Part shown: in pieces, positions 1,724 to 18,982 of the stretch | Position numbering within the stretch: the stretch's first letter is position 1 | Layout of the letters: the number at the start of each line of letters is the position of its first letter | Assembly (NCBI GenBank): GCA_016933055.1 | Contig: JAFGBS010000009.1 | Location: forward strand, 450,001 to 482,000 | Direction of reading: 5' to 3' | DNA from: Promethearchaeota archaeon | GTDB lineage: Archaea > Asgardarchaeota > Lokiarchaeia > Sigyniarchaeales > Promethearchaeaceae | Length of the DNA: 32,000 nucleotides | Notes under the pieces: generated by a model | Told to the model about the DNA's origin: nothing | Seen by the model: the letters and a program-made list of their open reading frames with translations, nothing else | Database searches by the model: none | Position numbers and translations under genes: made by a program

Positions 1724-4351
1724 TTGGTCAAAGAAATTGACATGATATATATGAATGAACGGGAGATCGGTAAACAGTCTTTAATTACATCCTTATCAGA
1801 GATAGGTTTTACTTTCCTCCCGAATACCAAAAATATATTGCAAAAAACGCTGGAATTACAAAAAGGAAAGAAAGTCACGTGGATCTGGAGTTTCTGTGAT
1901 CAAATAGACTGTATAACGAACTTAAATAAACATAATTCATCATATTTAATTATCCATATTAACAGAAGCCCCAAAAACATAATTGCGGCACTTTTTCACG
2001 CAAATTCATCTATAGAATTCTTTAATGAGGATCTAAATAGCAAGAGTACATCCTTTGTCAGATCAATCCTCAGATATTTCGCGGAATATCAGATACAATT
2101 AGACTCTCAATCCATTCAAAAAATTTTCGGATTAGATAGTTTCTTTTATCATTTAGCCCAAAAATTGATGGAAACTTCTGAATTCGATAAAATACGCTGG
2201 AAAACCCTCTTTATTCCCTATTATGATGAAGGCACAATAGATGATCTATTATTATTTTCTCATAGCTATTTGTCATTTTTGTTGAAGCTTTTTATTTTGA
2301 AACAGACAGAGAATACTGGCTTGACGACACAAAATTTGAAGTCGAAATTGCAAGCTTATCCATCATTTTGCGATGTCTTTTTTACTAAGGACCTCTTTTC
2401 TGGGATTCTTTATAATATTAAATTAACAACCATCTTTGATTGTTTAATACCTAAGCTAAATTTTCAGCAAGTAGATTTGTTTTCAATTATTTTCCAAGAA
2501 CTTATCTCCTTAAAAACACGGCAATCATTGGGAGAAGTGTATACTCCCTCCTCCTTAATACGTTTGATGGTCCAAAAGAAAATATCGGATCAAGAATCAT
2601 TTTTAGATCCTGCATGTGGGACTGGGTCCTTTCTAATCGAGATTTATAGCCATTTGAAAGAGACTGAGAAATTAACCGAAAATACTGAGTTATACGGGAT
2701 TGATGTGAATCCCCTCTCAGTAATGGCAACTATAACGAATTTTTATTTATTACAACAAGGGACTTTTCCCGAAAAGTGCCCTCAAATAAAAATTTTTCAT
2801 GCGGATGCATTGATATCTGAGGATAATCCATCAATAGCAAAAGTAATAGAAAAGAAAGTCGATTTTATTATTGGAAATCCCCCTTGGATTAACATTTCTG
2901 GAATATATCGGAGAGAATATAAAGAATTTCTGAAGAATTTGGCTAAACAGTTGAATATTCTTTATCCAATAGAGTCAAAAAACACAGAAATATGTACCAT
3001 TTTTTTCAATCAATCTAGAAATTTGTATTTGAAGAAAGGAGGGGAAATTTTTTTCATTTTTCCAGCATCCGTTCTTAATGGGAGACAACACGTGTATTTC
3101 CGATATTTTCCTGGTTTTAAAGATATTGAGATATGGCGCTTTAAACAGGACATCTTCAAAATCCATAGTATTTGTTTGTACGCTCGAAATTCGGGGCAAG
3201 ATCAAAAACCTTTTGAAAATAGAGAAGCTTTAAAAAAAAGATTGATCCTATCCAGTTTTCTTCTCTCCATCGATAATAACGGGGATATAATTCAAGATTC
3301 AAGAAAGAGAATTCCTTTGATCCCCATTTACATTAAAGATGCCAAAAACGGAAGTTTCCCATTGGTGGGAAGATACAATCCCCTTTCATTAGTTCCGAAA
3401 GAATTGCAGAGTGTTGTTCCAACAAGATCCCCTTATTATTCACAAGTAAAAGGGGGACTGCGTATTGTCCCCAGAAGATGGGTAGTTATCCAAGAACACC
3501 CTCCTTTTAACGAAACCGTAATCATCCATCCTGATATGTCGCAACAAGCAAAATCTCAATGGATTACGCCTCCATACAAAAAAGCGGAAGTGGAATCAAA
3601 ATATATCCATGAGTTTGTAAAATCCGAGTTTTTAATTCCTTACACTTTCGTGCAAACTAAATATGCATTTATACCAATTCGCCCCACTAAAAAAGCTATT
3701 CTAGAACGAAATGTTATAGAAACGAGCCATCTTCTTCCTTATGCTTCTAAATTCTACCGTTTTCTTGATGCCGAATATCGTAAACGTATTAAAAAATCCG
3801 CATCCATGCCAACTCTTGCAGATAATTTCACATATAATGGACGATTATTACCCACCAATGTAATTCTTCAATCGCACGAAGTTATGGTTGTTCATAATTC
3901 TATAGGTTCAATTGTTAAAAGTGCTGTGATCCGACACCCGCTCCTATTGGATAATTCCTTATATTATATCATCCTAGAAAATATTGAAGAAGCGTATTAC
4001 CTATGCGGCGTATTGAATTCAAATTTAATGACCAGTCTTGTTCGATTGATTGGAAGCACTGGATCTCGAGGAAGTCTGCGAAATATTCATAAAAATCCTT
4101 ATAATTTCTCTATCCCTCATTATTCGTCTTCTCCACTTCAGAATGAAATTGCCAATTTATGTAAAAAAATCGAACGTTATGTTCAGCGATTTGTATTAGA
4201 TTCACAAAAATCCACTTCACCGAGGTCAAATAAAACTGAACAAGTGATTATAAAACCTAGAACTATACAAAATCGACTTTTGACTGATTTAACATATAAA
4301 GAGTATACCTTTACCCTTGATTCATTAGTGAGAGAAATCTTGATCCACTGA
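1724..4351 (+). CDS. N-6 DNA methyltransferase, type IIG/Eco57I-like architecture (gamma-class MTase plus C-terminal specificity region)
   Basis: LGEVYTP (motif X), LDPACGTGSFL (motif I, ~2606), IIGNPPW (motif IV, ~2876) and C-terminal EEAYYLCGVLNS. The track start is TTG; ATG alternatives lie at about 1742-1751. Confidence 0.85.
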   Translation: MVKEIDMIYMNEREIGKQSLITSLSEIGFTFLPNTKNILQKTLELQKGKKVTWIWSFCDQIDCITNLNKHNSSYLIIHINRSPKNIIAALFHANSSIEFFNEDLNSKSTSFVRSILRYFAEYQIQLDSQSIQKIFGLDSFFYHLAQKLMETSEFDKIRWKTLFIPYYDEGTIDDLLLFSHSYLSFLLKLFILKQTENTGLTTQNLKSKLQAYPSFCDVFFTKDLFSGILYNIKLTTIFDCLIPKLNFQQVDLFSIIFQELISLKTRQSLGEVYTPSSLIRLMVQKKISDQESFLDPACGTGSFLIEIYSHLKETEKLTENTELYGIDVNPLSVMATITNFYLLQQGTFPEKCPQIKIFHADALISEDNPSIAKVIEKKVDFIIGNPPWINISGIYRREYKEFLKNLAKQLNILYPIESKNTEICTIFFNQSRNLYLKKGGEIFFIFPASVLNGRQHVYFRYFPGFKDIEIWRFKQDIFKIHSICLYARNSGQDQKPFENREALKKRLILSSFLLSIDNNGDIIQDSRKRIPLIPIYIKDAKNGSFPLVGRYNPLSLVPKELQSVVPTRSPYYSQVKGGLRIVPRRWVVIQEHPPFNETVIIHPDMSQQAKSQWITPPYKKAEVESKYIHEFVKSEFLIPYTFVQTKYAFIPIRPTKKAILERNVIETSHLLPYASKFYRFLDAEYRKRIKKSASMPTLADNFTYNGRLLPTNVILQSHEVMVVHNSIGSIVKSAVIRHPLLLDNSLYYIILENIEEAYYLCGVLNSNLMTSLVRLIGSTGSRGSLRNIHKNPYNFSIPHYSSSPLQNEIANLCKKIERYVQRFVLDSQKSTSPRSNKTEQVIIKPRTIQNRLLTDLTYKEYTFTLDSLVREILIH

Positions 4352-4439: not shown

Positions 4440-6008
4440 ATGAACTGGCAAGAAGTGATCATCCTAATCGTATATAGTCTATTACTGGCGGGTATTATCG
4501 TTATTATCATATTCAGAGAAAAAATCTTTGAACGAATCGAACGACCAAAAGTGAGTGCACCCAGCCCCAGAGTTCAAAAGATCCTGCAAAAATATTTCAA
4601 AGAAAAGGAAGCTCAACAAAAAGAACTTGAAAAACTTGAAATAATTGAAGCAATGAAAGTAACTATGCTGGATGAGATTGAAACAAAAAGCACTGAGATG
4701 ACCGAAAAGGCTGAAGCTACCATCAGAACACTCGAACCCGAAGAAAAATTAATCGAACAAGGAGGGAAAATGTTCACCCAGTTCAGTATCGGTCTTGAAA
4801 ATGCTTTACCTCGTGATGAGAAAGAACGCGTTAAGGATATGGGTGATTTAATAGATGCTATCAAAATCTTAGAAAGCTTGGATAAGGACCATTATGAGCA
4901 AGAAATTAAGGATGATACTGGAAAAGGTATGTTTTTCGACCAGATCACTTCCAAATTATATCGTGCAATGAGGAAGGAAGAATTCACCAAAGATAAACTC
5001 TTTGTGTTTGATAAGTTGGTCACGCTTGGCTTGAAAACTCTTAAAAACACTACTCGAAAAGATTTGCATGATGCCTTGAATTTTATGAAAGAGGCTTATT
5101 ACATCAAAGATTATTTAGTGATAAACCCTGAGCTCACACTTATTTCAAGAAAGGGGGATATTCCTACATTTTCGAAATCGGAAACTGTTGTATTAGCATT
5201 AGCTTATGAAGAACATCCTTTACACTACAGTTTATTGCTAGAAAAATCCAAATGGTCTGAATCCTATGCAAATTCAGTAATTGATAACCTAGTTCAGAAA
5301 GAACTAGCAGAACGCCACAATGGGATCATTTCGCTTATTGGTTTTGAAACTCCGGAAGAAAAAGCAGAGAGAAAATTATTAGAAGAGAAATTAGAAGAAA
5401 ATTTGAAAGAAAAAGCACGATTACGCAAAGAACAACAACTACGTTTAGAACAAGAATTACGCAGCGAGACATACCCTAAGGAGAAATCCGAAGAAATTAA
5501 ATCGGAGTTTGAAGTAGATGAAGAAGAGTTTGAGGATATCATCGGTAGCGAATTTATTGAGGACAACACAGACTTCGAACTTAATGAGGATGCGATGATT
5601 GAGGGAATTATGACAATCTTTGAAAATTATGAACATATGAATGGAGGGCTGATGGACATACGTCTTATTCATCAATACCTATCGGAATTATATATTGAGA
5701 TAACCGTAGAGCAAATACTGAATACTTTGGATTCGTTAATGGAAATGGGTTTAGTCCGAGAAGTATTAAATTTATCCGGTGTCACCATAGTATTATTTAA
5801 AGAAATCCCTTTAGATGAAGAAATGAAAATTCTTTTAGGTACTATTTTGGAAAATGGATGGATGGATAAAACAGAAATTGGCTTGAAACTCGGATGGGAT
5901 GAGGAACAAACCCTTAATGTGATGAAACGACTGCAAGATGTTGGCTTGTTAAGATTGGATGAAAAAAATAGAGTTGTAATCCCGGGATTGTTCATCCAAC
6001 AGAATTAG
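4440..6008 (+). CDS. Membrane-anchored protein with two EAP30/Vps36-like (ESCRT-II) winged-helix modules separated by a coiled-coil and acidic linker
   Basis: TM at aa ~5-25 followed by basic residues. The C-terminal module (HMNGGLM...ENGWMDKTEIGLKLGWDEEQTLNVMKRLQDVGLLRLD...IPGLF) and the internal module (TTRKDLHDALNFMK...ETVVLALA...KSKWSESYANSVIDNLVQKELA) both resemble the Vps22/EAP30 pattern as remembered. Confidence 0.7.
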   Translation: MNWQEVIILIVYSLLLAGIIVIIIFREKIFERIERPKVSAPSPRVQKILQKYFKEKEAQQKELEKLEIIEAMKVTMLDEIETKSTEMTEKAEATIRTLEPEEKLIEQGGKMFTQFSIGLENALPRDEKERVKDMGDLIDAIKILESLDKDHYEQEIKDDTGKGMFFDQITSKLYRAMRKEEFTKDKLFVFDKLVTLGLKTLKNTTRKDLHDALNFMKEAYYIKDYLVINPELTLISRKGDIPTFSKSETVVLALAYEEHPLHYSLLLEKSKWSESYANSVIDNLVQKELAERHNGIISLIGFETPEEKAERKLLEEKLEENLKEKARLRKEQQLRLEQELRSETYPKEKSEEIKSEFEVDEEEFEDIIGSEFIEDNTDFELNEDAMIEGIMTIFENYEHMNGGLMDIRLIHQYLSELYIEITVEQILNTLDSLMEMGLVREVLNLSGVTIVLFKEIPLDEEMKILLGTILENGWMDKTEIGLKLGWDEEQTLNVMKRLQDVGLLRLDEKNRVVIPGLFIQQN

Positions 6009-6730: not shown

Positions 6731-8137
6731 ATGAATGATCAAGAACTATTCCGTCTTTCGAAGAAAGAACGCTTTACTTATTCCCTTATGCAAATGCCTA
6801 ACACAATTTTAGGGGGGATTTTTAGTTTCTTGTTTGTTGATCAGTTTTGGGACAACTTACAGATGGATCAAACCTTATTTGTTATAGCACAAATTCTTTA
6901 TGCGGTTGTAAATAGTCTTAATGATTTTTATTTCGGCAGGATAAGTGACAACACCGACGCAAAGCGTTGGGGTAGTCGTCGTTTGATTTATATTAAATGG
7001 GGTGGTCCACTTTGGAGTTTGGTGTTTTTTTTAACATGGTTCCCATGGAGTTACACAAATCAGTGGATAATATTTTTTAATTTTTTAACAATCATGTTCA
7101 GTTTTGACTCGTTGTTATCCTTAGTATGGATCGTCTGGCTGGCTTTAATGTCAGAACTCACAGAAAATCATGAGGAAAGAAATAGGATGGGACTTTATAA
7201 TGCTTATTTTAACATATTGGGTGCAGTTTTTGTCGTGATTGCTTTTCTTCTTTTCCAAGCTCCCAACGGATTATTATTATTTCGAATATTTGCTGGATTC
7301 TGTTCTGTGTTATGTGCAATCTGTTATATCTATGTCGGTACTCATCTGAAAGAAAGACCTGAGTTATATGTAAACCAAGAGCATTTACCATTATTTAAAT
7401 CACTCTCTGAGGTATTGAAATCTCGTTCCTATATTACAATGACTGTATTTAGGGTTTTCAATCAACTTAATGGAGCTCTATCGACTGCATTTGCGTTCAC
7501 ATTCTTGTACTGGTTAGGAGATATTTATATACTCATTGCATTTTTGACTCCTATCGTAAGTATCTTGGGATCTTGGGTTTATAAGAGTCTCTCTGGTAAA
7601 TATGATGTTAAAATATTAGTAATATGGGGGAGAACTCTGCAAATCTTGTTGTCCATAGCAACCTTTTTTATTTTATACATTCCGGGTACGGAATTTATTA
7701 TATGGGGTGTTGTTTTCCTTAACGGTATATTCGGAGGTTATATGATCTTTGATGTACCAATTATGTCAATGGTAATGGATGAGGACGAAGTCTTCCATAA
7801 TAAAAGACGAGAAGGCTTGATCTTGGGTACTAATGCATTTTTTAACAAAATCGCAGAAAGTTCCGCGCCGATTTTGGGTACATACATCCTTCTACTATTT
7901 GGATTTATCCAAGGAGAAACACCAAGTACAGATGCAATTTTGGGGATAAAATTTCTGTTCTTAATTATTCCCGCAATTGTGAATTTTATTGCACTTCTTG
8001 GAATCGCGTTTTTCCCCCTATATGGAAAAAACCTAGAAAAACTACAAAAACAATTAAACGAATTACACACTGAAAAAAAAAGAGTGTATGATTCTTCAAA
8101 AGATACTGGAGATATAGAAAGAACAAATAAGCTCTAA
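6731..8137 (+). CDS. MFS transporter, glycoside-pentoside-hexuronide (MelB/MFS_2-like) family
   Basis: About 12 TM helices; NDFYFGRISD...RWGSRR loop 2-3 motif; SELTENHEERN; DEDEVFHNKRREG in the C-terminal half. Confidence 0.85.
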   Translation: MNDQELFRLSKKERFTYSLMQMPNTILGGIFSFLFVDQFWDNLQMDQTLFVIAQILYAVVNSLNDFYFGRISDNTDAKRWGSRRLIYIKWGGPLWSLVFFLTWFPWSYTNQWIIFFNFLTIMFSFDSLLSLVWIVWLALMSELTENHEERNRMGLYNAYFNILGAVFVVIAFLLFQAPNGLLLFRIFAGFCSVLCAICYIYVGTHLKERPELYVNQEHLPLFKSLSEVLKSRSYITMTVFRVFNQLNGALSTAFAFTFLYWLGDIYILIAFLTPIVSILGSWVYKSLSGKYDVKILVIWGRTLQILLSIATFFILYIPGTEFIIWGVVFLNGIFGGYMIFDVPIMSMVMDEDEVFHNKRREGLILGTNAFFNKIAESSAPILGTYILLLFGFIQGETPSTDAILGIKFLFLIIPAIVNFIALLGIAFFPLYGKNLEKLQKQLNELHTEKKRVYDSSKDTGDIERTNKL

Positions 8138-8184
8138 TGTGAAACAAAAATCGATTTCACTATTTTTCCCAATCAATCACACTT

Positions 8185-8198
8185 AAGAAATATATAAT
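8185..8198 (+). promoter_or_regulatory. Putative BRE plus TATA box for the HAD hydrolase gene (near-leaderless)
   Basis: AAGAAA followed by TATATAAT, about 28-35 nt upstream of ATG 8226, matching archaeal core-promoter spacing. Confidence 0.45.
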
Positions 8199-8225
8199 AA
8201 ACTACTAAGTAAGAAAAGTAAACTG

Positions 8226-8699
8226 ATGAAATTATATAATATACCTAACTATGGAAAATTCGAGATTCACAATATTCTTTTGGACCTTAATGGAACAATT
8301 ACTGCGTTCGGGAATATTCCTGCTGATCTAAGGTATCTTATCCAAGAAATGAAAAAACATTTTGAAATTTATGTGATCAGCGCAAACACCAGGGATACTT
8401 TGGATGAAATTGCAGAAGAATTGGATATTAAAGCAATTCACATACCAAAATCGAAAGCAGAATCACAGTCAAAACTAACTTCACTCCGAGTATTGGATCC
8501 CGACCAAACTATAGTGATAGGAAATGGAAATAATGACACCGAAATTATCACACAAGCTGCTATAGGTATTAGTGTTATAGGAAAAGAAGGTACATCCATT
8601 CAAGCGTTAATATCCTCAGATATGGTGGTACAGAGTCTAAGTGATGCATTTAAGATATTATTGGATGAAAAAGCATTAATCGCAACTCTACGAAAATAA
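8226..8699 (+). CDS. HAD-superfamily hydrolase, soluble P-type-ATPase-like (COG4087-type)
   Basis: Motif I LLDLNGT, motif II ISAN, motif III K, motif IV IGNGNND; about 157 aa with no TM. Confidence 0.8.
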   Translation: MKLYNIPNYGKFEIHNILLDLNGTITAFGNIPADLRYLIQEMKKHFEIYVISANTRDTLDEIAEELDIKAIHIPKSKAESQSKLTSLRVLDPDQTIVIGNGNNDTEIITQAAIGISVIGKEGTSIQALISSDMVVQSLSDAFKILLDEKALIATLRK

Positions 8700-8726
8700 G
8701 GAAAATATAAAAAAGTACCACTGATT

Positions 8727-11700
8727 TTATAGAGGAGGACCTGGATCTGATTCGTCACTAAAGGAAATTTCCTTCAGCGTTGTGTCTCTTGCTTTTTTTT
8801 TATACAGTACTGTTACAACACAAGCCAACGCGATCGCTAATGCAATTCCAATTCCTATGGTAATGTATGGTATAACTGTGGAATACACAATTACGGTTTG
8901 GATTGTTGAAGCTACAATATTCCCATATACATCCTGTACTTCCACAAAATAGTGTACTTTGGAATCCACATTTTCCAATCCAGATATAATGATATCAAAT
9001 GCATTTATGTCGTCAATAGAATATGTCGTTTGGGATCTCCACGAATCACCTTGTCGGAAGGTAAATCGAACTTTGTAAATCTGGTTGTTGTCAAAAGCTT
9101 CAACATGTAGGTTTAATTCTACATCTTCAATATGTTCGATTTGCGAAACTGCAACTGTGTTTATGGATGGGTAGACTAAATCTCTGTAAATACTCTGGTT
9201 TGCATAAAATAACAGTGGAAAATTCATTAGTGCGAACGGTTCTGAGCTTATCGTGAGGTTTTGATACATACCCCATAACTTTGACGAGGGAACAATAGAA
9301 TTTTTAACCGAGTCCACTAGTAGGTTGTAAGTAATAACTGTATCTCCATGCGGTAGTAATGGAATGAAGAAATGAATATCCGAGTAGATCGATTGATAAG
9401 TAATCTCTAGAGCATTTGATTCTATAGATTGTCCATTTACTTTGATAGTATCAGTCGCTAATATCATTCCCGCTGGAATCGAATCATCCAACGCAAAATA
9501 TTGCAATGAATCATTAGGATTTGACATAATAAGCGAAACAGAAACTAATTCTCTTGGAAGAATGTTTATAGTTTTTGAGAATTCTTTCTGTAGGGCAATT
9601 TCATAATCTAAATTTGCAGAAAGACTTTTGGAATTAAGTGGAGTTAATACTGCAGGAGATTGCTTGGAAATACTTGCCGATACATCTTCTTCCAACACAT
9701 TTATCTCTACAGGTCCAATCATTTTATGATATAGTAGTGGATCATCTAAATCTGAATTGATGAGTAATAACATTGACACATAAAAGCCATCAACAGAATA
9801 GGTTCCTAGTTCTGAGGGAGCATGTAGAGTAAAATTAACTGATTTACCTTCTGTAATCGTTGTAAAAGTTTTTGAATACTCGTATGCCGATACCTGAAAT
9901 ATCTCCGGAACATTTATCATGCTCAAAGAAACCTCTGATAATGTCAAATCTTCATAAAACGGATCAATATCCACTGTGACATTGAAAAATTCGTCTGTAT
10001 TAATTTCTATTAGTTCTGGTATATTGATTACTGGCACATAACGAATAATTTGAGTAGATGTAAAAATAAATGCAAGTTGTCCTGTCCCTATTGTCGTAAT
10101 ATTTATTTCATTTTGTCCATCTACTATATATCGGCTTATCTCAGTTAAGATTGATGATGGAGAGTAACTAGCATCAGTCAAATTATAAATTATTTGGGGG
10201 ATTTTTGAATTTACAGATATATTTACGGTTCCATTGAAATCTAATACTGGTAATGATTCTGAAAATTTCGTTAGTTCGGTTAAAGTATAAATTGCAGCCG
10301 AAGAATCTGCTGTTGACCACCAACCCCAGGTCGATTTCGAATCCAGTAAAAATTTTACGGCTTTTTGTATTATTGCATAATTTCCAAGATAGTCTTCTAA
10401 TGCTAATGCTAGTGTAGCATAAGCTGTAATTTCTACACTATTACCCAGGTTTCTCCAGTAATAAAAAGCATCATTTTCCCAATATGCAGTAGTTGCTGTA
10501 GATTTTCGCTCAGCTAGCAAATAGGAAAGCATGCTTGTCTTAATAGTATCATTCTCATAAGGAGTATTCCATGTAGATATTAAATATAGGGCTGCTCCAT
10601 ATGGACTTTGATGATTTACATTTAACCAATCCGCATTCAAAAAGTCTATGCCAGATTGAATTGCATTTTCCATTGCAGATGTTTTATTTGCAGATAAGAT
10701 TAGAGTTCTAAGGGTATAAATTGTTGCTTCAAACGCATTTGCAGAATAGTAGGGATACTCCCAACTTCCATCAGTCTTTTGTTCACTCACGACGTAGTTG
10801 TATGCTTTAAACATCACAAAATCATTTAATTCGAATCCAGACAGCTTAACTAGTTCTAGAGTAAATACTGTAATTACTGTCATTTGGAGATTGGATTCCC
10901 CATTTCCCCACCATCCCCAGCCTCCATCAGTATTTTGCAGGTTATATACTCTGCTCAATCCTTGCATTATCATAGGAATTAGTTCTTCGATCAATGCTTC
11001 GGTGAGTTGACCTATATCATTTAAATATCGATATATCATTGCAGTAGTTATCAGTTTGGAAGTAGTTTGTTCTATACATCCATGAGGATATCCTACTAAG
11101 CTTTGCCACCCCTCTATTGAAATCTCCATTACGTCTTTAAACAAAGAAAGTGTTTCCTTATGGAAAATACTCGAGGGATCGAGCGTATAATTGAAAACAT
11201 ACGATCCCATGGATTGATTCACATAAGCTGAGAACCTTTCGGTATATTCGTATCCATTTGGATAAGTGTTGGCTTGCATCTGTTTTGCATCTGAATATAT
11301 AATGTTCTCCTCTTCACTCAAGGCTAAAATGGTAATGTTATGGAGAAAAGGATCTCGTGCATAAAGTGTAAATTCGACTTCCGATACGTAATTATGCGGT
11401 ATTCGTATATTCTGAGTGGGATTGTTTAATATATCGAATCCAGGTGCATCAATTATGACATCTGCAGTAAGATCAGTGCCAGCATAATTATATATATACG
11501 CCTTTAAGGTCACAATTTCATCTTGTGTTATTGGTGATGGAGGTTCAAATTCGACAAAAAATGGTAAAAAGGCTTTAATCTCCACAGTTTGGGTTTGTCC
11601 CCATAAGATATTTGTTTCATCTATAGCATTCCCCACTAATCGAATAGTCCACTCACCGATATTATCAGGAAGATGAAATGTGAAGTTTGTCGGACCATTT

Positions 11701-14700
11701 ATTACCTTGGATGGGATCCAGTTAGCGGATTCAGTAATATTCTTGCGTATGTTAATATCATAGGATCTGACAATATCATCAAGAGATGGTGAATTTAGAC
11801 CTTCCAATCCGAATAAAGAAAATTCATCCCACCCTCCTCCTAGCTTTCTAACATAAAAAGGTGAAAACCAGAATCCCCCCGTAGGTAATTCATAACTTAT
11901 CCATGCGTAATTCTCCCAAAATACTCCGCTACCCCAACTACTTCCACTACCTATGTATGCATGATAAGAACTGCGTTCAAAATAGTTTAATTCGGAATCC
12001 TCTTCTGGTTCTACCGCAAGAACGGCACTGTCTATAAATGTAGTGGAAATTAGCATGGGATTATCATCATTCGGGGTAATTGTTAATGTAACCTTATCAC
12101 CTGGTTCATATACTTCTTTATCTGTGGAAATTTGAAATCCTGATTCAAATTCCACATGAACAATCAGATATATTTCATGAAGTCGACCAGATTCTGCGAT
12201 GGTGTAAATCATTATCGTAAAATCTGGTCCTAAATCGGATGTAATGGGTAAATTTTTCGTAAATTGATCTTCCACTATTAGTAATCTCTCGGAATACAGT
12301 ATTCCCCGCTTGTAGATTTCGAAATACAATGGTTGATTTGTCGACACATTGGTTACTCCGCAAATTTCTAAGGTGTCTCCAAGATCCACCTCAATTCTAG
12401 AATCATCATGAGTCATAATAGTAGCATTTGTGGTTATCCCGATAGTATTTACTGTACCGACAGAGAATTGTTTCGTGACAGAGTGATATAAAAATCCGCC
12501 ATAGTAATCGTTACGTCTGGAATACACATAAGAATATAGATAGTAAGTACCCTCAGGGGCAAATGTAGGAATGGTAATAGAAAAATCCCGTGTTCCATCT
12601 ATCTCGAAACCAGCACGTCCAAGTAAATTATATTCTGCATCATAGATGTAAATCCTTCCCTCTCCTTTCTGTGCTGTTTGAGTTAATGCATCTACATAAT
12701 TAGCAGTAAAATCAAGTGTATCTCCAGGATTCAACATGAGGTTTAGCAACTTAATATCCAATGCATATTTCCTATAACGATAATAGGTGAACCAATCCGT
12801 GGAACGTCCGTCTTCGAGTTCGATATCAAGCCGGATTTCAAATAAATTATAATTCTTCACATCTTCAAGTGGTAAAGCGAATTCTAATTTACCCGCACCA
12901 TATTCATTGGTTGTAGAATAGTAAGTTCCTAATAGAGTCCTTCCTCTTATGGTTGCAATATAAATAGGATATTCTTTAACTCCATACACTCGGATTTTCG
13001 CAGTGACATTTGCCAAAGGATTGTATTCATATGTATAATACCATTCAGAGGTGGATAGGATTTGAAATACATTAAAATAGTATTCTAAATTTTCATTTGG
13101 GGATGGAGCCCAATCGGATAAATATCCATACGCAAAAAGTTCCTCATTTCGTGTATATTTCTTTACTGCATCAGCAGTTCTTCCATAAGTATCAGTTACA
13201 GCTGCTTCTGCAGAAAATACCCAATCAATTCCTTCCAACCATTTTAAATCAATACTAAACGAAAATATACCTTGACCATTAGTTTTACCAGAAACTCGGT
13301 ATACTATCTCATCGTTATAATCTTTTAGAGTAAGAAATACTTCTGCATCCACTACAGGCTGTCCAAAATAGTATTCTACATCAACAGAGCCTTTAAACAA
13401 TTCCTGTTTGTACAATTTTTGTAATCCTCTGGTTTTAGGATAAAATTCTTGACCATTTGTATTTATTGAAACCCGGAATACAGGTTTTACATAAAAATCG
13501 ATGCGAATAGAATGCAAATAATAGATTTCACCAATTGAAAACTCAAATCCGAAGCTACCAGTTTCAGTTTCATAATCTAAAGGAAATTCCATAATAGCTA
13601 CTCCCTCTAAATCCGTTTCTATTTCCGTCCAAAAAACTGCAAGTTCGCTGGGATTGTAGATTGTTAACTGAACTTTTTGATTACTATAGGGAATTCGAGT
13701 CTCATTCAGATAATTATATTCAAAGACTAGTGCACGTAATTTAATTGTCTCACCTGGACTGTAAATAGTCTTATCTGTAGTAATTACAAATTGGTATTTA
13801 TCATAATTCATTTCCTGAGCACCTCCCCATAACGTATAATAATAATGTGACCAATCTTGATAGAGAAATGTGCGATAGGAAATGGATCCTTCAGTGGATT
13901 CAATGGTTAAACGCAAGGAATCACCGAAATAATTTTCATCTTTAAATAAAAGAATGGGATCAGTGTGAAAAATATCATAACCATACGTATCTGTCTGTCC
14001 TTCCCCATATTGAACAGTAATCCACTGTTCTGCATTATAATCATATGTATCAAGAAAATACTCATAATGATGGTTCGGCATAGGTGAAAAATCAGAAATA
14101 TTTACTAGATGCACTGCTGCATGATAATTTTGATTTTCTGTGTAATACATAGGTCCTTTCAGAAAAATTCCTGTCTCTGAAACGCTGAATTCTCGATATG
14201 TTGAAACATCTCGATCATTATAATAAGCCAGTACTGTATACGGTCCTGAATCCGAGGTATCCGAAAAAGTTAAAGCAACCTCTCCATTATCATCCGTGTA
14301 AAACTGATCAGAAAATATTAGCTCTGAATTGTAATAGTTTGAATACTGATAGTTATAGTACCTATAAAACCCTTTATAGATATGAACCGTAATAACGTTA
14401 TCCTCACTAGGGATAAAACTTTTTGTTAATCGTAATTTTAAATCAATGCTCTCGCCAGGTATAACAGCATATTTATTCAAATATAAGGTTAGGGAATAAT
14501 CCTGGAATGAATACCAATTTTGGGATGACTCGGGCAAGGTTTCTTTATTATTTTCATTCTCCTCCCCCTCCTCACTATACAATAAAGGGGATGTGCGGTT
14601 TACTTTAAAATAATAAGGTGAAGAATGTGGTGTAAAGGATTTTACTGGTTCTTCTTCCTCCAATTGGGGGGTAGCACCTGCAAAAGATACGTTCAACCAA

Positions 14701-14762
14701 AAATTGGACACCGGAAGTAATAGAAATAGTAATACAAAACTCATAACTTGACGTTTTTTCAT
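8727..14762 (-). CDS. Alpha-2-macroglobulin family thioester protein with signal peptide and C-terminal TM anchor
   Basis: MG-domain signatures TDKTIYSPGETIKLRAL and TDKEVYEPGDKV; LPDNIGEWTI; thioester GYPHGCIEQT (11067-11081); QNTDGGWGWW, SVEITAYATLAL and WWSTADS in the alpha/alpha barrel. The track starts at a TTG at 14864, but ATG 14762 (MKKRQVMSFVLLFLLL) yields a normal signal peptide. Confidence 0.92.
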   Translation of the reverse strand: MKKRQVMSFVLLFLLLPVSNFWLNVSFAGATPQLEEEEPVKSFTPHSSPYYFKVNRTSPLLYSEEGEENENNKETLPESSQNWYSFQDYSLTLYLNKYAVIPGESIDLKLRLTKSFIPSEDNVITVHIYKGFYRYYNYQYSNYYNSELIFSDQFYTDDNGEVALTFSDTSDSGPYTVLAYYNDRDVSTYREFSVSETGIFLKGPMYYTENQNYHAAVHLVNISDFSPMPNHHYEYFLDTYDYNAEQWITVQYGEGQTDTYGYDIFHTDPILLFKDENYFGDSLRLTIESTEGSISYRTFLYQDWSHYYYTLWGGAQEMNYDKYQFVITTDKTIYSPGETIKLRALVFEYNYLNETRIPYSNQKVQLTIYNPSELAVFWTEIETDLEGVAIMEFPLDYETETGSFGFEFSIGEIYYLHSIRIDFYVKPVFRVSINTNGQEFYPKTRGLQKLYKQELFKGSVDVEYYFGQPVVDAEVFLTLKDYNDEIVYRVSGKTNGQGIFSFSIDLKWLEGIDWVFSAEAAVTDTYGRTADAVKKYTRNEELFAYGYLSDWAPSPNENLEYYFNVFQILSTSEWYYTYEYNPLANVTAKIRVYGVKEYPIYIATIRGRTLLGTYYSTTNEYGAGKLEFALPLEDVKNYNLFEIRLDIELEDGRSTDWFTYYRYRKYALDIKLLNLMLNPGDTLDFTANYVDALTQTAQKGEGRIYIYDAEYNLLGRAGFEIDGTRDFSITIPTFAPEGTYYLYSYVYSRRNDYYGGFLYHSVTKQFSVGTVNTIGITTNATIMTHDDSRIEVDLGDTLEICGVTNVSTNQPLYFEIYKRGILYSERLLIVEDQFTKNLPITSDLGPDFTIMIYTIAESGRLHEIYLIVHVEFESGFQISTDKEVYEPGDKVTLTITPNDDNPMLISTTFIDSAVLAVEPEEDSELNYFERSSYHAYIGSGSSWGSGVFWENYAWISYELPTGGFWFSPFYVRKLGGGWDEFSLFGLEGLNSPSLDDIVRSYDINIRKNITESANWIPSKVINGPTNFTFHLPDNIGEWTIRLVGNAIDETNILWGQTQTVEIKAFLPFFVEFEPPSPITQDEIVTLKAYIYNYAGTDLTADVIIDAPGFDILNNPTQNIRIPHNYVSEVEFTLYARDPFLHNITILALSEEENIIYSDAKQMQANTYPNGYEYTERFSAYVNQSMGSYVFNYTLDPSSIFHKETLSLFKDVMEISIEGWQSLVGYPHGCIEQTTSKLITTAMIYRYLNDIGQLTEALIEELIPMIMQGLSRVYNLQNTDGGWGWWGNGESNLQMTVITVFTLELVKLSGFELNDFVMFKAYNYVVSEQKTDGSWEYPYYSANAFEATIYTLRTLILSANKTSAMENAIQSGIDFLNADWLNVNHQSPYGAALYLISTWNTPYENDTIKTSMLSYLLAERKSTATTAYWENDAFYYWRNLGNSVEITAYATLALALEDYLGNYAIIQKAVKFLLDSKSTWGWWSTADSSAAIYTLTELTKFSESLPVLDFNGTVNISVNSKIPQIIYNLTDASYSPSSILTEISRYIVDGQNEINITTIGTGQLAFIFTSTQIIRYVPVINIPELIEINTDEFFNVTVDIDPFYEDLTLSEVSLSMINVPEIFQVSAYEYSKTFTTITEGKSVNFTLHAPSELGTYSVDGFYVSMLLLINSDLDDPLLYHKMIGPVEINVLEEDVSASISKQSPAVLTPLNSKSLSANLDYEIALQKEFSKTINILPRELVSVSLIMSNPNDSLQYFALDDSIPAGMILATDTIKVNGQSIESNALEITYQSIYSDIHFFIPLLPHGDTVITYNLLVDSVKNSIVPSSKLWGMYQNLTISSEPFALMNFPLLFYANQSIYRDLVYPSINTVAVSQIEHIEDVELNLHVEAFDNNQIYKVRFTFRQGDSWRSQTTYSIDDINAFDIIISGLENVDSKVHYFVEVQDVYGNIVASTIQTVIVYSTVIPYITIGIGIALAIALACVVTVLYKKKARDTTLKEISFSDESDPGPPL

Positions 14763-14878
14763 TAAGTCCACCAAGAATTCAATATATGGTATACAGAATG
14801 ATACTATCATTATACCATACATTAGAACAGTAAATTGAAAGTGTTCTAAATTATAGATTCTCAAAAAAAAAACACCTG

Positions 14879-14910
14879 AAAAATATATCGAGATAGATAG
14901 ATATATTTTT
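14879..14910. promoter_or_regulatory. 11-bp perfect inverted repeat, candidate operator in the divergent A2M/AIM24 promoter region
   Basis: AAAAATATATC (14879-14889), a 10-nt spacer, then GATATATTTTT (14900-14910). Confidence 0.4.
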
Positions 14911-14973
14911 TAGTTCGCACCAAGGATATTTCTAAGAGACATCAATTCTCTCTTCATTAGGTAAACTAAAAAA

Positions 14974-15696
14974 GTGAATAAAATGGAACAAGGAATACAT
15001 TATTCGTATGAAATTGCTGATCGCCCCACCTTTTCTTATTTAAAAGTCCTTTTAAAGAAAGACCAAGAGATTAAGTCCGAACCCCAAAGTATGATGTTCT
15101 TCGAGCCTACTCTTGAATTGCGTACAGAACGAGCTGAAGGGGGTTTTTTTAAATCGCTAAAACGGACTCTAGCGGGTGAGAAGTTTTTTGCCAACGTGTA
15201 TTATGCCCATGATGACGGATGGCTAGCTTTGTGTCCTTCATTTGCCGGAGACATTCGCCATATAGCAATGCAACCGGGAGATTCGTGGATTGTTTTCTCT
15301 GGAGCTTATATTGCATCTTCTATGAACCTATCTCAGGACACACGCTTTCAAGGATTAGGGAAAGGTATCATGTCCCAGGAACGTCTGTTTATTTTAACGG
15401 TTATAGCGGATCAAGGTCCAGGAGACTTATTTGTTGGGGCAAATGGGGCTTTTATGGAGTGGACACTCCAGCCAGAACAAGTTCTGAATGTGGATAATGG
15501 TCATCTTGTTGCTATGAGTACAAGTGTAACCATGCAATTTCGCGCTGCAGGAAATCTGAAGACAACTCTCCTCTCTGGGGAGGGTTTTATGTGTAAACTA
15601 ACAGGACCCGGTAAGGTGATTATTCAATCAAGAAATCCGCGTGAATTTGCCATGTGGCTTTATCGCTTTATGCCAAAACCTAGCAGTACTTCTTAA
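14974..15696 (+). CDS. AIM24 / TIGR00266 family protein
   Basis: EPQSMM, GGFFKSLKRTLAGEKFF, DNGHLVAM and LLSGEGFMCKLTGPGKVIIQSRN. ATG 14983 is an alternative start. Confidence 0.9.
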   Translation: MNKMEQGIHYSYEIADRPTFSYLKVLLKKDQEIKSEPQSMMFFEPTLELRTERAEGGFFKSLKRTLAGEKFFANVYYAHDDGWLALCPSFAGDIRHIAMQPGDSWIVFSGAYIASSMNLSQDTRFQGLGKGIMSQERLFILTVIADQGPGDLFVGANGAFMEWTLQPEQVLNVDNGHLVAMSTSVTMQFRAAGNLKTTLLSGEGFMCKLTGPGKVIIQSRNPREFAMWLYRFMPKPSSTS

Positions 15697-15721
15697 ATTT
15701 CTACTCTCTCTCTTTATTTTA

Positions 15722-16246
15722 TCATATTGGTTTATTGCGAAAACGAATTATTACTTCAAACCAGAGATAGATAATAATAAGGCTACCAAATAAAATAACA
15801 AAAAATGAATCTTTTACCCAAATCGTATAGAAGAAGATAAGATAAATCAAGAAGAGTACGGTAAAAAATACAGCAAAAAATAGGATTAGAGGAATAAGAT
15901 TTTTTCCTAATAAAATCCAAGAGGTCAAGGAAGGAATATTTGCTTTTTTTATCAAACGATAATTACCGTTCCGATTTTCGGCGAGTCCCAGTTTTTCTAT
16001 TTTTTCCAAGTGATATTTTGCAACCGAGGGTGAGGACAAGGATAAATTTTTCTGAAGTTCTCTCACTCCGCATTCTTTTTTGTTTAGCAGTGCAAAATAT
16101 ACCATTAATGTTGTTCCTTTAAGATTTTTGATTACTTCAGAACGTTGAAGTTCTATTTCCGTGTCAGATGGTACAGTTTTTTTTCTAAACCGCTTTAAAA
16201 AAGATAAGCAGCTTTTATCTTTCTTCTGGGATATTTTTTCTGACAC
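15722..16246 (-). CDS. Winged-helix transcription regulator with C-terminal TM helices
   Basis: LKGTTLMVYFALL...GVRELQKNLSLSSPSVAKYHLEKIEKLGL HTH and wing, followed by two hydrophobic helices. Confidence 0.8.
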   Translation of the reverse strand: MSEKISQKKDKSCLSFLKRFRKKTVPSDTEIELQRSEVIKNLKGTTLMVYFALLNKKECGVRELQKNLSLSSPSVAKYHLEKIEKLGLAENRNGNYRLIKKANIPSLTSWILLGKNLIPLILFFAVFFTVLFLIYLIFFYTIWVKDSFFVILFGSLIIIYLWFEVIIRFRNKPI

Positions 16247-16301
16247 TGACGATCAAGACTCTTATGGGAATTAGATAAAAAAAACTTCGGGATTCTAATC
16301 C

Positions 16302-18029
16302 CTAAGAATTTTGCTTTACAAAGTCGACAACAGCTGATAGCTCTTGTTTCCAAGTATCTTTCGGTCCGAATATATATATCCGAATATTTGGACCAGTTCC
16401 TGAAGGTCTTACAAATAATACGCTCCTCTCCGATTGTAAATATATCACATCGACTCTATTCTGCATATCTGTAAACGATTTAACAGCAAATTCAAATCCT
16501 CTTATTGTGATTGTTTTTCCAATTATACTTGTTAGATTATCAATATACTGAATCTTTTGTTCATCCGTTGCTGACAAAGTTGTTCTCCCTCTTCCAATAT
16601 CTTCAATATAGGATGAAAAATCATATCCCATTTCTAATAGGGCACATAGACAAAGGATTGCTGGCGCAGGATACTTATCTCCCATTATAGGATATTGACT
16701 TGAAAGTTTACCGTTGAACCGGGTAAATATATTAAAGGTATGACCTCCGCTTTCCTCCCATAACACAAAAATAGTCTCACCTAAAATTCCTGAATTCTTA
16801 ATAATTTGTTGAATTTCATCCTTTGTGCGTATTTTCTCATATACATTATTTTTTTGTTGATATATCACCGCAAGATCCACTTGTGATTGTGGAACATCTA
16901 AATCCGCAGCCAAATATTGAAATATACCTAAATGTTTGTACCCTACTCCACAAATAAAATTAATTTTAGAAGATTTATCGCAACCGGGATCACTGGGTAT
17001 TGTCTTTGCATTGATGATATTTTTTCCCTTTTCGGTCGCCAAGATGTTATGCATCGCGGTATACAATTGGTTGGGTTCAAAATTATAAAATTTATCCCCG
17101 ACATGAATAATAAATACGATCCGATCTCGGTCAGCGTCCACCATTATAGAGATTTTTGCATTATGTTTAACCATTATTTGCTTTACTTCATCTTCTTCAA
17201 ACGGATGAGTAGGATCTGGGGGATTCATATTTTTATCGATGAGGATTACATTAGCTCCACATGCTTCTAGTAATTTAACCAATTCGGGAGCTGCCCCCAA
17301 AAAAGGCCACACTACGATATTTTTCCCCTCTAATACTTCCAGGTCCAAAATTTTGGAAACCAAGTCGAGAATGTAATGGTTATTAACTCCATCAGCATCT
17401 ACCATTATTGGAGTATAAGATTTAGAAACTGTGATTTGGTTTAATTTAAGAGCATATTGACTTACTTTTTTCATAATCTCGCCTGATATGGGGATGGGGC
17501 GTTGAATATAAAACTTTAAACCATTCCATTTTAACGCATTATGACTTGCCGTAATCATAAGTACAACATCGATTTCATCAAATAATGCTATTGAACCTGC
17601 AGCATAAGGAGTGCTCATCTTTGATAATCCTCGAATATAACTACTGTGGGGATCTTTTTCCCCTTCTCCTGATTGGTGGTAGATGGAATATCCCTCAAAT
17701 GTAAAAATTCGGCTAGATAAATCCAGTAATATATCCGCAGATGGACGATCATCCGTGACAATTAATACATTCGGTGAGGCTTTCTTTACTTCTTTTTTTC
17801 CTACAACGGCGATAGCCTTTATTACACGCAAAAAATAAAACATCTTTTTACGTGTTAAGGTATAAGTGCTATTTTTCACTTCAAAAATTTCCATTCGTAA
17901 CCCACTAGTAGGTGGCACTAATGGATCTATGATGGCTTTTTCAGAATCATCTAATTCATCAAGATAGATAATGTTGTAATTCTCCTTGGGATTTTCGGGT
18001 ATCTTCTCGAACTTATAGCAATATTCCAT
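16302..18029 (-). CDS. Alpha-D-phosphohexomutase (phosphoglucomutase/phosphomannomutase family)
   Basis: Catalytic TASHN, metal loop DADRDR, sugar loop EESGGH, phosphate loop VRPSGTGP. Confidence 0.88.
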   Translation of the reverse strand: MEYCYKFEKIPENPKENYNIIYLDELDDSEKAIIDPLVPPTSGLRMEIFEVKNSTYTLTRKKMFYFLRVIKAIAVVGKKEVKKASPNVLIVTDDRPSADILLDLSSRIFTFEGYSIYHQSGEGEKDPHSSYIRGLSKMSTPYAAGSIALFDEIDVVLMITASHNALKWNGLKFYIQRPIPISGEIMKKVSQYALKLNQITVSKSYTPIMVDADGVNNHYILDLVSKILDLEVLEGKNIVVWPFLGAAPELVKLLEACGANVILIDKNMNPPDPTHPFEEDEVKQIMVKHNAKISIMVDADRDRIVFIIHVGDKFYNFEPNQLYTAMHNILATEKGKNIINAKTIPSDPGCDKSSKINFICGVGYKHLGIFQYLAADLDVPQSQVDLAVIYQQKNNVYEKIRTKDEIQQIIKNSGILGETIFVLWEESGGHTFNIFTRFNGKLSSQYPIMGDKYPAPAILCLCALLEMGYDFSSYIEDIGRGRTTLSATDEQKIQYIDNLTSIIGKTITIRGFEFAVKSFTDMQNRVDVIYLQSERSVLFVRPSGTGPNIRIYIFGPKDTWKQELSAVVDFVKQNS

Positions 18030-18097: not shown

Positions 18098-18982
18098 TTA
18101 AAGGAGTCCGTCTTCGTAATTGATCTTTGAAACGAGATCTTTGAGAATTTCGATGATTTTGGTTCGGTACTGTTGATTTATTGCGATCATCCCGTAAGTT
18201 TTAATTCCTAATAATTTTTGCACAAACTCGGGAGTTAAACGATTATTGAGATCTTGTTTATTGGCTATTCCCACAACAACGCAATCTTTGTAATATTTTA
18301 CCACTAATTCATTAATTATCTTTTTCGATTCGTTCACATTCTGAAAACTTGAATCGGTAACTAGTAGAGCAATGCGCGTTCCCTTTAACAAACTTCTCCA
18401 TAAATCCGAATATTGAATTTGTCCCGCAAAATCCCATAAAACTATGTTTCTTTTCCCTTTGGTATCCAATTCATCATATTTCGCGATATCTGCAGTGATA
18501 GTGGGTTGATATTCTAAATTCACTTCTTCTCCTACAATGAGTTTAAGTAATGAAGTCTTTCCCACGCCTGCAAAACCTATAATCGAAATTTTGATGGGAC
18601 CCAATACAATGCGATCGATAGTTTCCATAAAATCCTTGAAAACTTCACGTTCCCCATCATGTAAAAAATCGGCTATTTTATCCCCATATGCTGTTTCGAA
18701 TTGATTAATAATTTCCTCGAGTTTTTGAATTATTTGATCATTTTGGTCTTCTAAATCCGTACATACCGCTATAATTAGTTTGGGATTATCGATAGGTTTA
18801 AAGAAATACTTATTCTTTTCTGTTTGGGTTGATTTAATATCGGATTGTGCAATTTCCTTAAAAAAACCAGAAAACGCACTTAAAAATCCTGCTAGTAGAT
18901 CATGATCTATCTTAACTGGACCATATTCTCGGAATAGAATACTTTTACCATCTTGAGTTAAAATAGAAATGTGTTGAATCAT
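18098..18982 (-). CDS. Small Ras-superfamily GTPase with N-terminal longin-like domain
   Basis: G1 GFAGVGKTS (18554-18577), G2 YQPTI, G3 WDFAGQ, G4 NKQD. The N-terminal ~125 aa (ISILTQDGKSILFREY...LLAGFLSAF...F) fit a longin pattern. Confidence 0.88.
   Translation of the reverse strand: MIQHISILTQDGKSILFREYGPVKIDHDLLAGFLSAFSGFFKEIAQSDIKSTQTEKNKYFFKPIDNPKLIIAVCTDLEDQNDQIIQKLEEIINQFETAYGDKIADFLHDGEREVFKDFMETIDRIVLGPIKISIIGFAGVGKTSLLKLIVGEEVNLEYQPTITADIAKYDELDTKGKRNIVLWDFAGQIQYSDLWRSLLKGTRIALLVTDSSFQNVNESKKIINELVVKYYKDCVVVGIANKQDLNNRLTPEFVQKLLGIKTYGMIAINQQYRTKIIEILKDLVSKINYEDGLL

Follow-up and report, generated by a model that had tools for sequence, protein, structure and literature searches.

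What is an alpha-2-macroglobulin (A2M) doing on the cell of a Lokiarchaeia-type archaeon, and where does its gene come from? The question is raised by a coding sequence on the reverse strand of the 32,000-nucleotide stretch analysed here (the window; positions 450,001 to 482,000 of contig JAFGBS010000009.1, assembly GCA_016933055.1, Promethearchaeota archaeon). Judging from its sequence, the gene product is a full-length protein of the A2M/TEP family, and a cell-surface thioester protein is its natural reading. Taking sequence comparison and structural models together, we predict that it probably works as a surface-tethered covalent trap for foreign proteases on the Asgard (Lokiarchaeia-type) cell. 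In animals, A2M/TEP proteins are central to innate immunity, and in bacteria they are known as periplasmic guards; to our knowledge, archaeal A2Ms have so far only been catalogued.

The longest open reading frame (ORF; 8727-14864, reverse strand) opens with TTG. This start was rejected, as a conserved promoter element sits within the 102-nt extension preceding the ATG at 14762. Since, in addition, all homologues begin at the position of this ATG, with an M-K/R-rich and hydrophobic region, it is the preferred start and gives a protein of 2,011 residues. The gene is single-copy in its genome (3.76 Mb, 36 contigs, 91% complete). Four Pfam domains score above their gathering cut-offs: MG2 (325-411, 9e-20), A2M_BRD (803-916, 1.3e-11), A2M (1015-1102, 2.3e-11) and TED_complement (1208-1496, 1.8e-20). 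An NCBIfam scan of the whole protein returned squalene-cyclase noise only, which is explained by the common toroid fold.

Two AlphaFold2 models (residues 28-1105 and 1100-2011), built on a 59-sequence family alignment, reach predicted local distance difference test (pLDDT) values of 78.7 and 84.9, respectively. About seven beta sandwiches precede the bait in the model, and MG2, the bait-region domain and MG7 follow each other in the canonical A2M/TEP order. Foldseek searches with the N-terminal model rank ECAM and SaA2M first by E-value (3e-33), both of which possess extra N-terminal MG domains. A run of 57 residues (953-1009; 926-982 in model numbering) has pLDDT below 50 and is the least conserved window of the protein, with an identity of 0.21 versus 0.4-0.58 on either side; its length and sequence differ among the 59 homologues, while the flanks are strongly conserved. 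Because of its canonical position, disorder and hypervariability between conserved flanks, we assign this segment as the bait region. A hypervariable disordered bait is the signature of a broad-spectrum protease substrate, cleavage itself being a prediction from sequence and model.

The TED is inserted within the CUB domain, giving a beta-toroid-beta arrangement in the model, and its Y-P-x-G-C-x-E-Q-T motif is invariant in the 59 family members. The protein contains just three cysteines: Cys801, the thioester Cys1229 and Cys1981 of the membrane helix. Three beta domains follow the CUB. For the first (X1), ESM features give a lead, and no more than a lead, to the A2M_recep/bMG10 clusters (score 0.85). 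The second is bMG10/MG8-like: Pfam bMG10 matches 54 of the 59 family members (best E-value 4.6e-9), the protein of this locus remaining below the cut-off (E-value 0.0014, 19.3 bits versus 26.2). The membrane-proximal X2 has weak Big_7/Big_13 leads and an Ig-like ESM-feature score of 0.85, again a lead only. The predicted fold of residues 1100-2011 is native-like, as it superposes on native C5, C3, CD109, TEP1 and A2M with a TM-score of about 0.5 on the query and does not fit activated C3b (0.27). The root-mean-square deviation from native CD109 is 6.7 A over 790 columns.

At its two ends the protein has the layout of a type-I membrane protein. The N-terminus, MKKRQVMSFVLLFLLLPVSNFWLNVSFAGA, is signal-like and lacks a cysteine, hence there is no lipobox. 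At the other end the model has a long helix spanning residues 1966-1993. Entry into the transmembrane helix is marked by a conserved I-P-Y, followed by a small-xxx-small pattern; the proline is invariant in 42 Loki-type members. Behind the basic cluster lies a cytoplasmic SF(L/I)D-acidic motif, newly noted here. In the protein of this locus it reads ISFSD-ESD (8754-8768), and among Loki-type members it takes the form (I/V/T)-S/T-F-(L/I/S)-(D/E/N) followed by acidic residues, with a phenylalanine invariant in the 42 sequences. Hod/Heimdall-type members have tails of 5-10 residues, from which the motif is absent.

A preliminary description of this DNA, made without database searches, had already proposed an A2M-family protein with a signal peptide, MG domains, a GCIEQ thioester motif, extra Ig-like C-terminal domains, a transmembrane helix, a KKK stop-transfer and a short cytoplasmic tail. 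All of these features are present: the translation confirms the thioester motif as well as the helix, the basic stop and the tail, and domain parsing of the C-terminal model yields the three post-CUB beta domains. It had also pointed to many N-x-S/T sequons. There are indeed 23 of them, but they are no commoner than composition predicts (19.3 +/- 3.9 in 2000 shuffles, of which 20% reach 23).

The same plan is found across a whole family. A word-indexed search retrieved about 70 Asgard homologues of 1,943-2,129 residues with 27-70% identity, from sources named Promethearchaeota, Lokiarchaeota, Hermod-, Hod-, Thor- and Heimdallarchaeota and Kariarchaeaceae; the cultured Promethearchaeum syntrophicum (P0008) and Lokiarchaeum ossiferum (P0033) are among them. 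CxEQ and a single transmembrane helix at the C-terminus are found in every full-length member (about 59 homologues), as is a signal-like segment at the N-terminus. A length of about 1,950-2,080 residues, three beta domains after the CUB, the I-P helix entry and YPxGCxEQT are the further family traits, and the protein of this locus fits all of them. The family is also well delimited: in an exhaustive HMMER scan of 1.84 billion cluster representatives no full-length member falls below 420 bits, and nothing outside the family exceeds 226 bits.

The working cycle that we infer from this anatomy, covering thioester formation, bait cleavage, trapping and the preference for amines, would run as follows. 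The signal peptide would direct the chain to Sec export and the C-terminal helix would stop its transfer, leaving about 1,930 residues outside and 24 inside the cell. While the protein is at rest, the TED that bears the Cys1229-Gln1232 thioester would be packed onto the CUB and MG8-type domains and the thioester would be buried. An attacking protease would cleave the exposed disordered bait, the MG ring would rearrange and the thioester would become exposed. Its reaction with a lysine amine of the protease would then fix the enzyme to the surface protein and block its access to membrane proteins.

Several points weigh against this protease-trap function. A simple trap has no use for the three C-terminal beta domains or for the conserved cytoplasmic motif. 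The captured protease would remain on the cell surface. Complement and TEP proteins share the architecture yet are opsonins, so that architecture alone cannot tell a trap from a tagging protein. Finally, a gene present in only 29 of the 251 sampled Asgard genomes is dispensable.

Evidence on the chemistry comes from the TED. In animal TEPs a catalytic histidine about 110 residues past the thioester provides hydroxyl reactivity (C3, C4B, TEP1, CD109). According to the profile alignment, the loop that carries this residue in C3, TEP1 and CD109 is shortened in the Asgard family and has no conserved histidine; the CD109 segment 'rvihselq' and the A2M segment 'gsllnn', where A2M has an asparagine in place of the histidine, are insertions relative to the Asgard profile. 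The lack of a conserved histidine in the shortened loop makes a complement-like hydroxyl reaction less likely than an A2M-like amine reaction. On this alignment the thioester is predicted to react directly with amines, as in A2M, and not in the histidine-assisted manner of C3. Of the two roles offered by the preliminary description, covalent trap or complement-like defence protein, the surface thioester protein stands and the trap is favoured, while the complement-like reaction loses ground.

The missing histidine also bears on the alternative that we regard as the strongest, albeit an unlikely one: a complement/TEP-like tagging protein or covalent adhesin, whose thioester, once activated by cleavage, would bond not to the protease but to the surface of a virus, predator or syntrophic partner cell, linking the Asgard cell covalently to this target. 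The domain plan is that of C3 and TEP1, the best Foldseek E-values of the model are to native C3 and C5, the protein is membrane-tethered, and the cultured relatives that possess the family live in obligate syntrophy. Nevertheless, hydroxyl chemistry would call for the histidine loop of C3, C4B, TEP1 and CD109, a long, disordered and hypervariable bait suits many proteases better than one dedicated convertase, and the A2M genes have no conserved neighbour that encodes a convertase-like protease.

A second alternative arises from the genes and control elements around the Loki-type members. Upstream of the A2M gene and on the same strand lies a gene for a membrane-tethered protein with a winged helix-turn-helix (wHTH) domain and two C-terminal transmembrane helices. 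This wHTH-2TM protein has a basic N-terminus and weak TrmB/ArsR matches, and is 170-188 residues long across loci. It is the upstream same-strand neighbour in six out of six Loki-type loci. Its strict orthologues (240-311 bits) were found only in the seven genomes with a Loki-type A2M, always beside the A2M gene, and in genus g3 the two are present or absent together. The wHTH-2TM family as a whole is large, occurring in 153 of 251 genomes with many paralogues. In the window an AIM24-family gene (14974-15696, forward strand; Pfam 1.3e-53) separates the wHTH-2TM gene from the A2M gene, the two being directly adjacent in the five other Loki-type loci examined.

Just upstream of the TATA-like box there is an inverted repeat which constitutes a candidate operator. 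Its proximal part belongs to an element, gTGTTCTAAt..tT.GTATaatA, in which a GTTCTA box is placed 5-7 nt from the TATA-like GTATAAT; this element was present in all 11 loci compared, from both clades, even though A2M proteins from one clade share only about 30% identity with those from the other. The second arm is located 12-14 nt farther upstream and is inverted here and in all five Hod-type loci, but direct in the other Loki-type loci. As a perfect inverted repeat the sequence is unique in the 3.76-Mb genome. Shared k-mers did not reveal the motif in the upstream regions, as the distal arm is inverted in the window, which served as reference; alignment and anchoring on GTTCTA did.

SF[LIVSM][DEN] was considered as a general sorting signal and rejected: among 494 ORFs whose final 110 residues include a hydrophobic stretch, just three carry it after that stretch. 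One is the A2M, the only protein of the genome in which a single C-terminal anchor helix is followed by the tail motif; the remaining two are short multi-helix membrane ORFs. The tail motif, the co-inherited wHTH protein and the GTTCTA operator together suggest a dedicated control of the Loki-type gene, which may be linked to cell-envelope state. At the Hod-type genes the upstream polB was considered as a functional partner and rejected, being a housekeeping gene whose synteny is confined to one genus.

These elements could be connected in a protease-sensing receptor: bait cleavage would alter the transmembrane helix or tail, and the wHTH protein would switch genes, A2M included, through the GTTCTA operator; trapping may be secondary. 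We consider such a receptor improbable. Its basis is the gene order in the Loki-type loci, the restriction of the strict orthologues to genomes with a Loki-type A2M, the operator shared by both clades and, in the protein, the invariant tail phenylalanine, the small-xxx-small pattern and a tail motif that no other single-anchor protein of the genome has. However, binding of the wHTH protein to operator DNA or to the A2M tail is purely hypothetical, and Hod/Heimdall-type loci retain the operator with short tails and without an adjacent wHTH gene. Furthermore, with so many paralogues the operator binder could be any member of the wHTH-2TM family, and at this locus the AIM24 gene lies in between. 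A complex prediction pairing the A2M transmembrane helix and tail with the wHTH-2TM protein scored 0.00, which is uninformative either way. A receptor role could also add to the trap instead of replacing it. We give an equally small chance to the fuller proposal of a surface-attack sensing circuit made up of the macroglobulin and the wHTH-2TM protein, in which bait cleavage would be relayed through the transmembrane helix and SF(L/I)D tail to the operator. If true, one protein would be both protease trap and receptor, in a one-step signalling route across the membrane of the closest archaeal relatives of eukaryotes.

The next alternative concerns the anchor and not the trap itself. The C-terminal helix might be a cleaved sorting signal of the Loki-CTERM/archaeosortase type, the mature protein being lipid-linked or released. 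An I-P at the helix entry and a basic cluster behind the helix, present in all members, reproduce the three-part layout of such signals, and the Hod-type member P0067 passes the NCBIfam Loki-CTERM model barely, with 20.2 bits against a cut-off of 19.9. Yet neither the C-terminus of this protein nor any of the 42 Loki-type C-termini matches this model, and the Loki-type C-termini extend 24-60 residues past the basic cluster and include a conserved motif there, which sorting signals lack. No exosortase/archaeosortase (PF09721) was found in the 91%-complete genome, while the M. jannaschii control registered; a Loki-specific enzyme of another kind may exist. We therefore hold processing to be very unlikely. 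Since the PF09721 enzyme and the Loki-CTERM match are missing and the signal peptide and single transmembrane helix are conserved, we read the helix as a permanent type-I anchor, a reading confined to the Loki-type clade.

Bacterial A2Ms are mostly N-terminally lipid-anchored and often paired with PBP1C, and animal thioester proteins include C-terminally anchored forms. From this the preliminary description had concluded that the anchoring resembles the animal proteins. The comparison with other archaea does not bear this out: among the matches listed, the non-family A2Ms that end in a transmembrane helix and could be named are all archaeal (Thermoplasmata P0141, Altiarchaeota P0139 and P0208, Micrarchaeota P0168, Gugararchaeum P0138) and occupy at least two other branches of the A2M tree. 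They share with the Asgard family the signal peptide, an A2M core with YPYGCxEQT, one C-terminal transmembrane helix and a basic tail, but are about 1,050-2,500 residues long and have no SF(L/I)D in their last 25 residues. The combination of a signal peptide and a C-terminal transmembrane helix is a recurrent archaeal way of tethering, convergent with the glycosylphosphatidylinositol (GPI) anchor of CD109.

Among monomeric animal TEPs, CD109 (PDB 8s3o, 9fx2), A2ML1 and insect TEP1 are alike in having a C-terminal membrane tether, and in these proteases are trapped through the thioester; CD109 differs in its GPI anchor, used in place of a transmembrane helix, and in the catalytic histidine of the loop shortened in the Asgard protein. 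Among bacterial type-1 A2Ms, E. coli ECAM/YfhM and Salmonella SaA2M (PDB 5a42, 4ziq, 4u48) are similar in being of the monomer type, membrane-tethered and outward-facing, with additional N-terminal MG domains, a bait and a CUB-TED unit with CxEQ; their bMG10-type domain has a possible counterpart in residues 1723-1846 of the Asgard protein. They have an N-terminal lipobox cysteine as anchor and are paired with pbpC, whereas the Asgard protein has a C-terminal transmembrane helix, no lipobox and two extra C-terminal beta domains, and its sequence similarity to them is very low (18-20 bits, phmmer). In agreement with the preliminary description, no neighbouring gene codes for a penicillin-binding protein such as pbpC; the transglycosylase domain PF00912 was not found anywhere in the 91%-complete genome, and ten control genomes registered.

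Sequence comparison with solved structures places CD109 first. In a phmmer search against PDB chains the protein of this locus scored 86 bits with CD109 (6.8e-24), 63 with A2M, 50 with TEP1 and 18-20 with SaA2M and ECAM; the family profile gives 117 bits with CD109. The better scores to the animal chains arise because the two bacterial references are divergent. Other prokaryotic A2Ms come considerably closer to animal chains than the 86 bits reached here: P0136, from a Planctomycetota/Verrucomicrobiota-type group, has a best score of 212 bits, the prokaryotic P0195 has 181, and P0123, on a contig with archaeal-type genes (a Wyosine_form radical-SAM gene), has 159. When P0136, the most animal-like prokaryotic A2M, was used as the query, the best 120 matches listed were all bacterial. 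These bit scores to PDB chains indicate that there is no special kinship with animal TEPs, and they argue against the family as the archaeal root of animal TEP/complement proteins, an origin that we rate as highly improbable. Without such kinship the family is not to be cited as an Asgard origin of complement.

The origin of the family was addressed by maximum likelihood, with a tree obtained by quick search under LG+C20 from 137 rows of the MG7-CUB-TED core. The Asgard family forms one clade with a support of 99 in the Shimodaira-Hasegawa-like approximate likelihood ratio test (SH-aLRT), in place of the nesting among recently transferred bacterial A2Ms with the same C-terminal helix that the preliminary description had considered. 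The Loki-type subclade (99) contains the protein of this locus and is itself nested among Hod/Heimdall-type branches. The family belongs to a supported half of the tree (100) shared with A2Ms of Nanoarchaeia, Bathyarchaeota and Thermoplasmata and with a bacterial group; no sister group of the Asgard family is settled in this 137-row tree. The nearest outgroups are archaeal, namely Nanoarchaeia and contigs with archaeal marker genes, outgroup taxonomy having been deduced from contig context and named genome loci. A recent transfer of a bacterial A2M into one archaeon, for which it speaks that bacterial A2Ms are the nearest characterised prokaryotic relatives and that the N-terminal MG array has its best Foldseek E-values to ECAM/SaA2M, is refuted by the tree, the score gap and the outgroups, and retains next to no probability given also the spread of some 70 divergent homologues over Loki-, Hod-, Heimdall- and Kari-named lineages and a C-terminal transmembrane helix that occurs in none of the bacterial matches.

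The A2M family, with its two deep clades, is old in Asgard archaea but patchy. The matching genomes of the phylum comprise all four sampled from the GTDB family of this archaeon, 4 of 18 from one genus of the sister family and 14 of 16 from another family. A second, distant A2M type (about 1,550-1,650 residues, 20-24% identical) occurs in a few Asgard genomes (G028:C391, G222:C19, G148:C291, G092:C155; P0174). P0174, named Freyarchaeota, lacks an evident C-terminal transmembrane helix; in the tree it clusters with an A2M of Bathyarchaeota. A 1,666-residue A2M-family match, P0093, has at least six hydrophobic helices at 647-882, close to the usual bait position.

Thus, several Asgard lineages carry a large thioester protein tethered to a wall-less surface. 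In these cells, the closest to the eukaryotic ancestor, it is a candidate for an extracellular defence, one that the existing cultures of P. syntrophicum and L. ossiferum make directly testable. The conserved operator and the co-inherited membrane-bound regulator offer a handle on how archaea control surface defences. The Asgard A2M is an undescribed variant within the known A2M/TEP superfamily. A survey of archaeal A2Ms (Makarova et al., 2021; PMC8416519) lists 27 proteins in 24 arCOG genomes, mainly of Halobacteria and Methanomicrobia, and we found Asgard members mentioned nowhere in it. The homologues described there are similarly archaeal, with a signal peptide, Ig/MG domains and a TED with intact CxEQ, and were proposed to act in defence or inter-microbial conflict. 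By contrast, the architecture of the Asgard family is fixed and distinct, with about 2,000 residues, a C-terminal transmembrane helix, a tail motif and an operator, and no shuffled Ig-gene neighbourhood was seen at the loci examined. Our search of a literature library listed no paper naming macroglobulin together with Loki- or Heimdall-type archaea; papers containing both 'Asgard' and 'macroglobulin' had titles on other topics, and one uses macroglobulin merely as a fold example.

Table 1. Features of the A2M locus, with positions in the window and the basis of each assignment.
Feature	Positions	Strand	Basis
A2M-family coding sequence, 2011 aa	8727-14762	-	ORF list and translation; four Pfam A2M-family domains above cut-off; stop codon 8727-8729
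Predicted signal peptide, residues 1-30 (MKKRQ, hydrophobic core, SFAGA)	14673-14762	-	translation; layout as in all full-length homologues
About seven MG-type beta sandwiches, residues 89-911	12030-14498	-	AlphaFold2, Foldseek, Pfam
Bait region, residues 953-1009	11736-11906	-	pLDDT <50, lowest conservation, variable length and sequence
MG7 (Pfam A2M), residues 1015-1102	11457-11720	-	Pfam
CUB, first half, residues 1103-1209	11136-11456	-	AlphaFold2 beta strands ahead of TED; Foldseek to native C3, C5, CD109, TEP1
TED (alpha/alpha toroid), residues 1211-1500	10263-11132	-	Pfam TED_complement 1.8e-20; twelve model helices
GCIEQ thioester motif, residues 1228-1232 (Cys1229, Gln1232)	11067-11081	-	translation
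CUB, second half, residues 1510-1573	10044-10235	-	AlphaFold2
Beta domain X1, residues 1578-1690, canonical MG8 position	9693-10031	-	AlphaFold2
Disordered Ser-rich linker, residues 1695-1719	9606-9680	-	pLDDT <50; sequence
bMG10/MG8-like domain, residues 1723-1846	9225-9596	-	Pfam bMG10 in family; AlphaFold2
Membrane-proximal Ig-like beta domain X2, residues 1866-1959	8886-9167	-	AlphaFold2
C-terminal transmembrane helix IPYITIGIGIALAIALACVVTVLY, residues 1964-1987	8802-8873	-	translation, AlphaFold2, family conservation
Cytoplasmic tail, 24 aa: KKK stop-transfer, then ARDTTLKEISFSDESDPGPPL	8730-8801	-	translation
Candidate operator: inverted repeat TTAGAACA-N12-TGTTCTAA, just upstream of TATA-like GGTATAAT	14822-14849		GTTCTA box and GTATAAT conserved in 11/11 loci; perfect repeat unique in the genome
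Membrane-tethered winged-helix protein, 174 aa, wHTH and two C-terminal transmembrane helices	15722-16246	-	same-strand upstream neighbour

The neighbouring genes mark the source as an Asgard archaeon, and the genome belongs to the same GTDB family as Candidatus Harpocratesius repetitus. Three of them belong to the eukaryote-signature genes that typify Asgard archaea: a small GTPase of the Roc/Ras/Arf type, extended at its N-terminus by 130 residues (18098-18982, reverse strand), a Roadblock/LC7-domain protein (24152-24880, forward) and a 522-residue protein with weak EAP30/Vps36 and wHTH matches (4440-6008, forward). A Kae1-Bud32 fusion and ribosomal protein S24e complete this group of markers.

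The window further contains a gene for an 875-residue Eco57I/MmeI-type N6-adenine DNA methylase (1724-4351, forward), possibly a type IIG/IIL restriction-modification enzyme, a relative of which adjoins the A2M gene in one Hod-type locus (L020, 12552-14879). In a 735-residue protein (19681-21888, forward) a ChlI/MoxR-type AAA+ ATPase is joined to a von Willebrand A domain at the C-terminus. Two metatranscriptome runs of the probable source study gave no match to 8000-16400 of the window, which says nothing about expression either way. Contig fragments that show no differences from 8000-16400 are present in a 2017 'hot springs metagenome' run from a study other than the probable source, a 'sediment metagenome', so a near-identical strain has been sampled twice.

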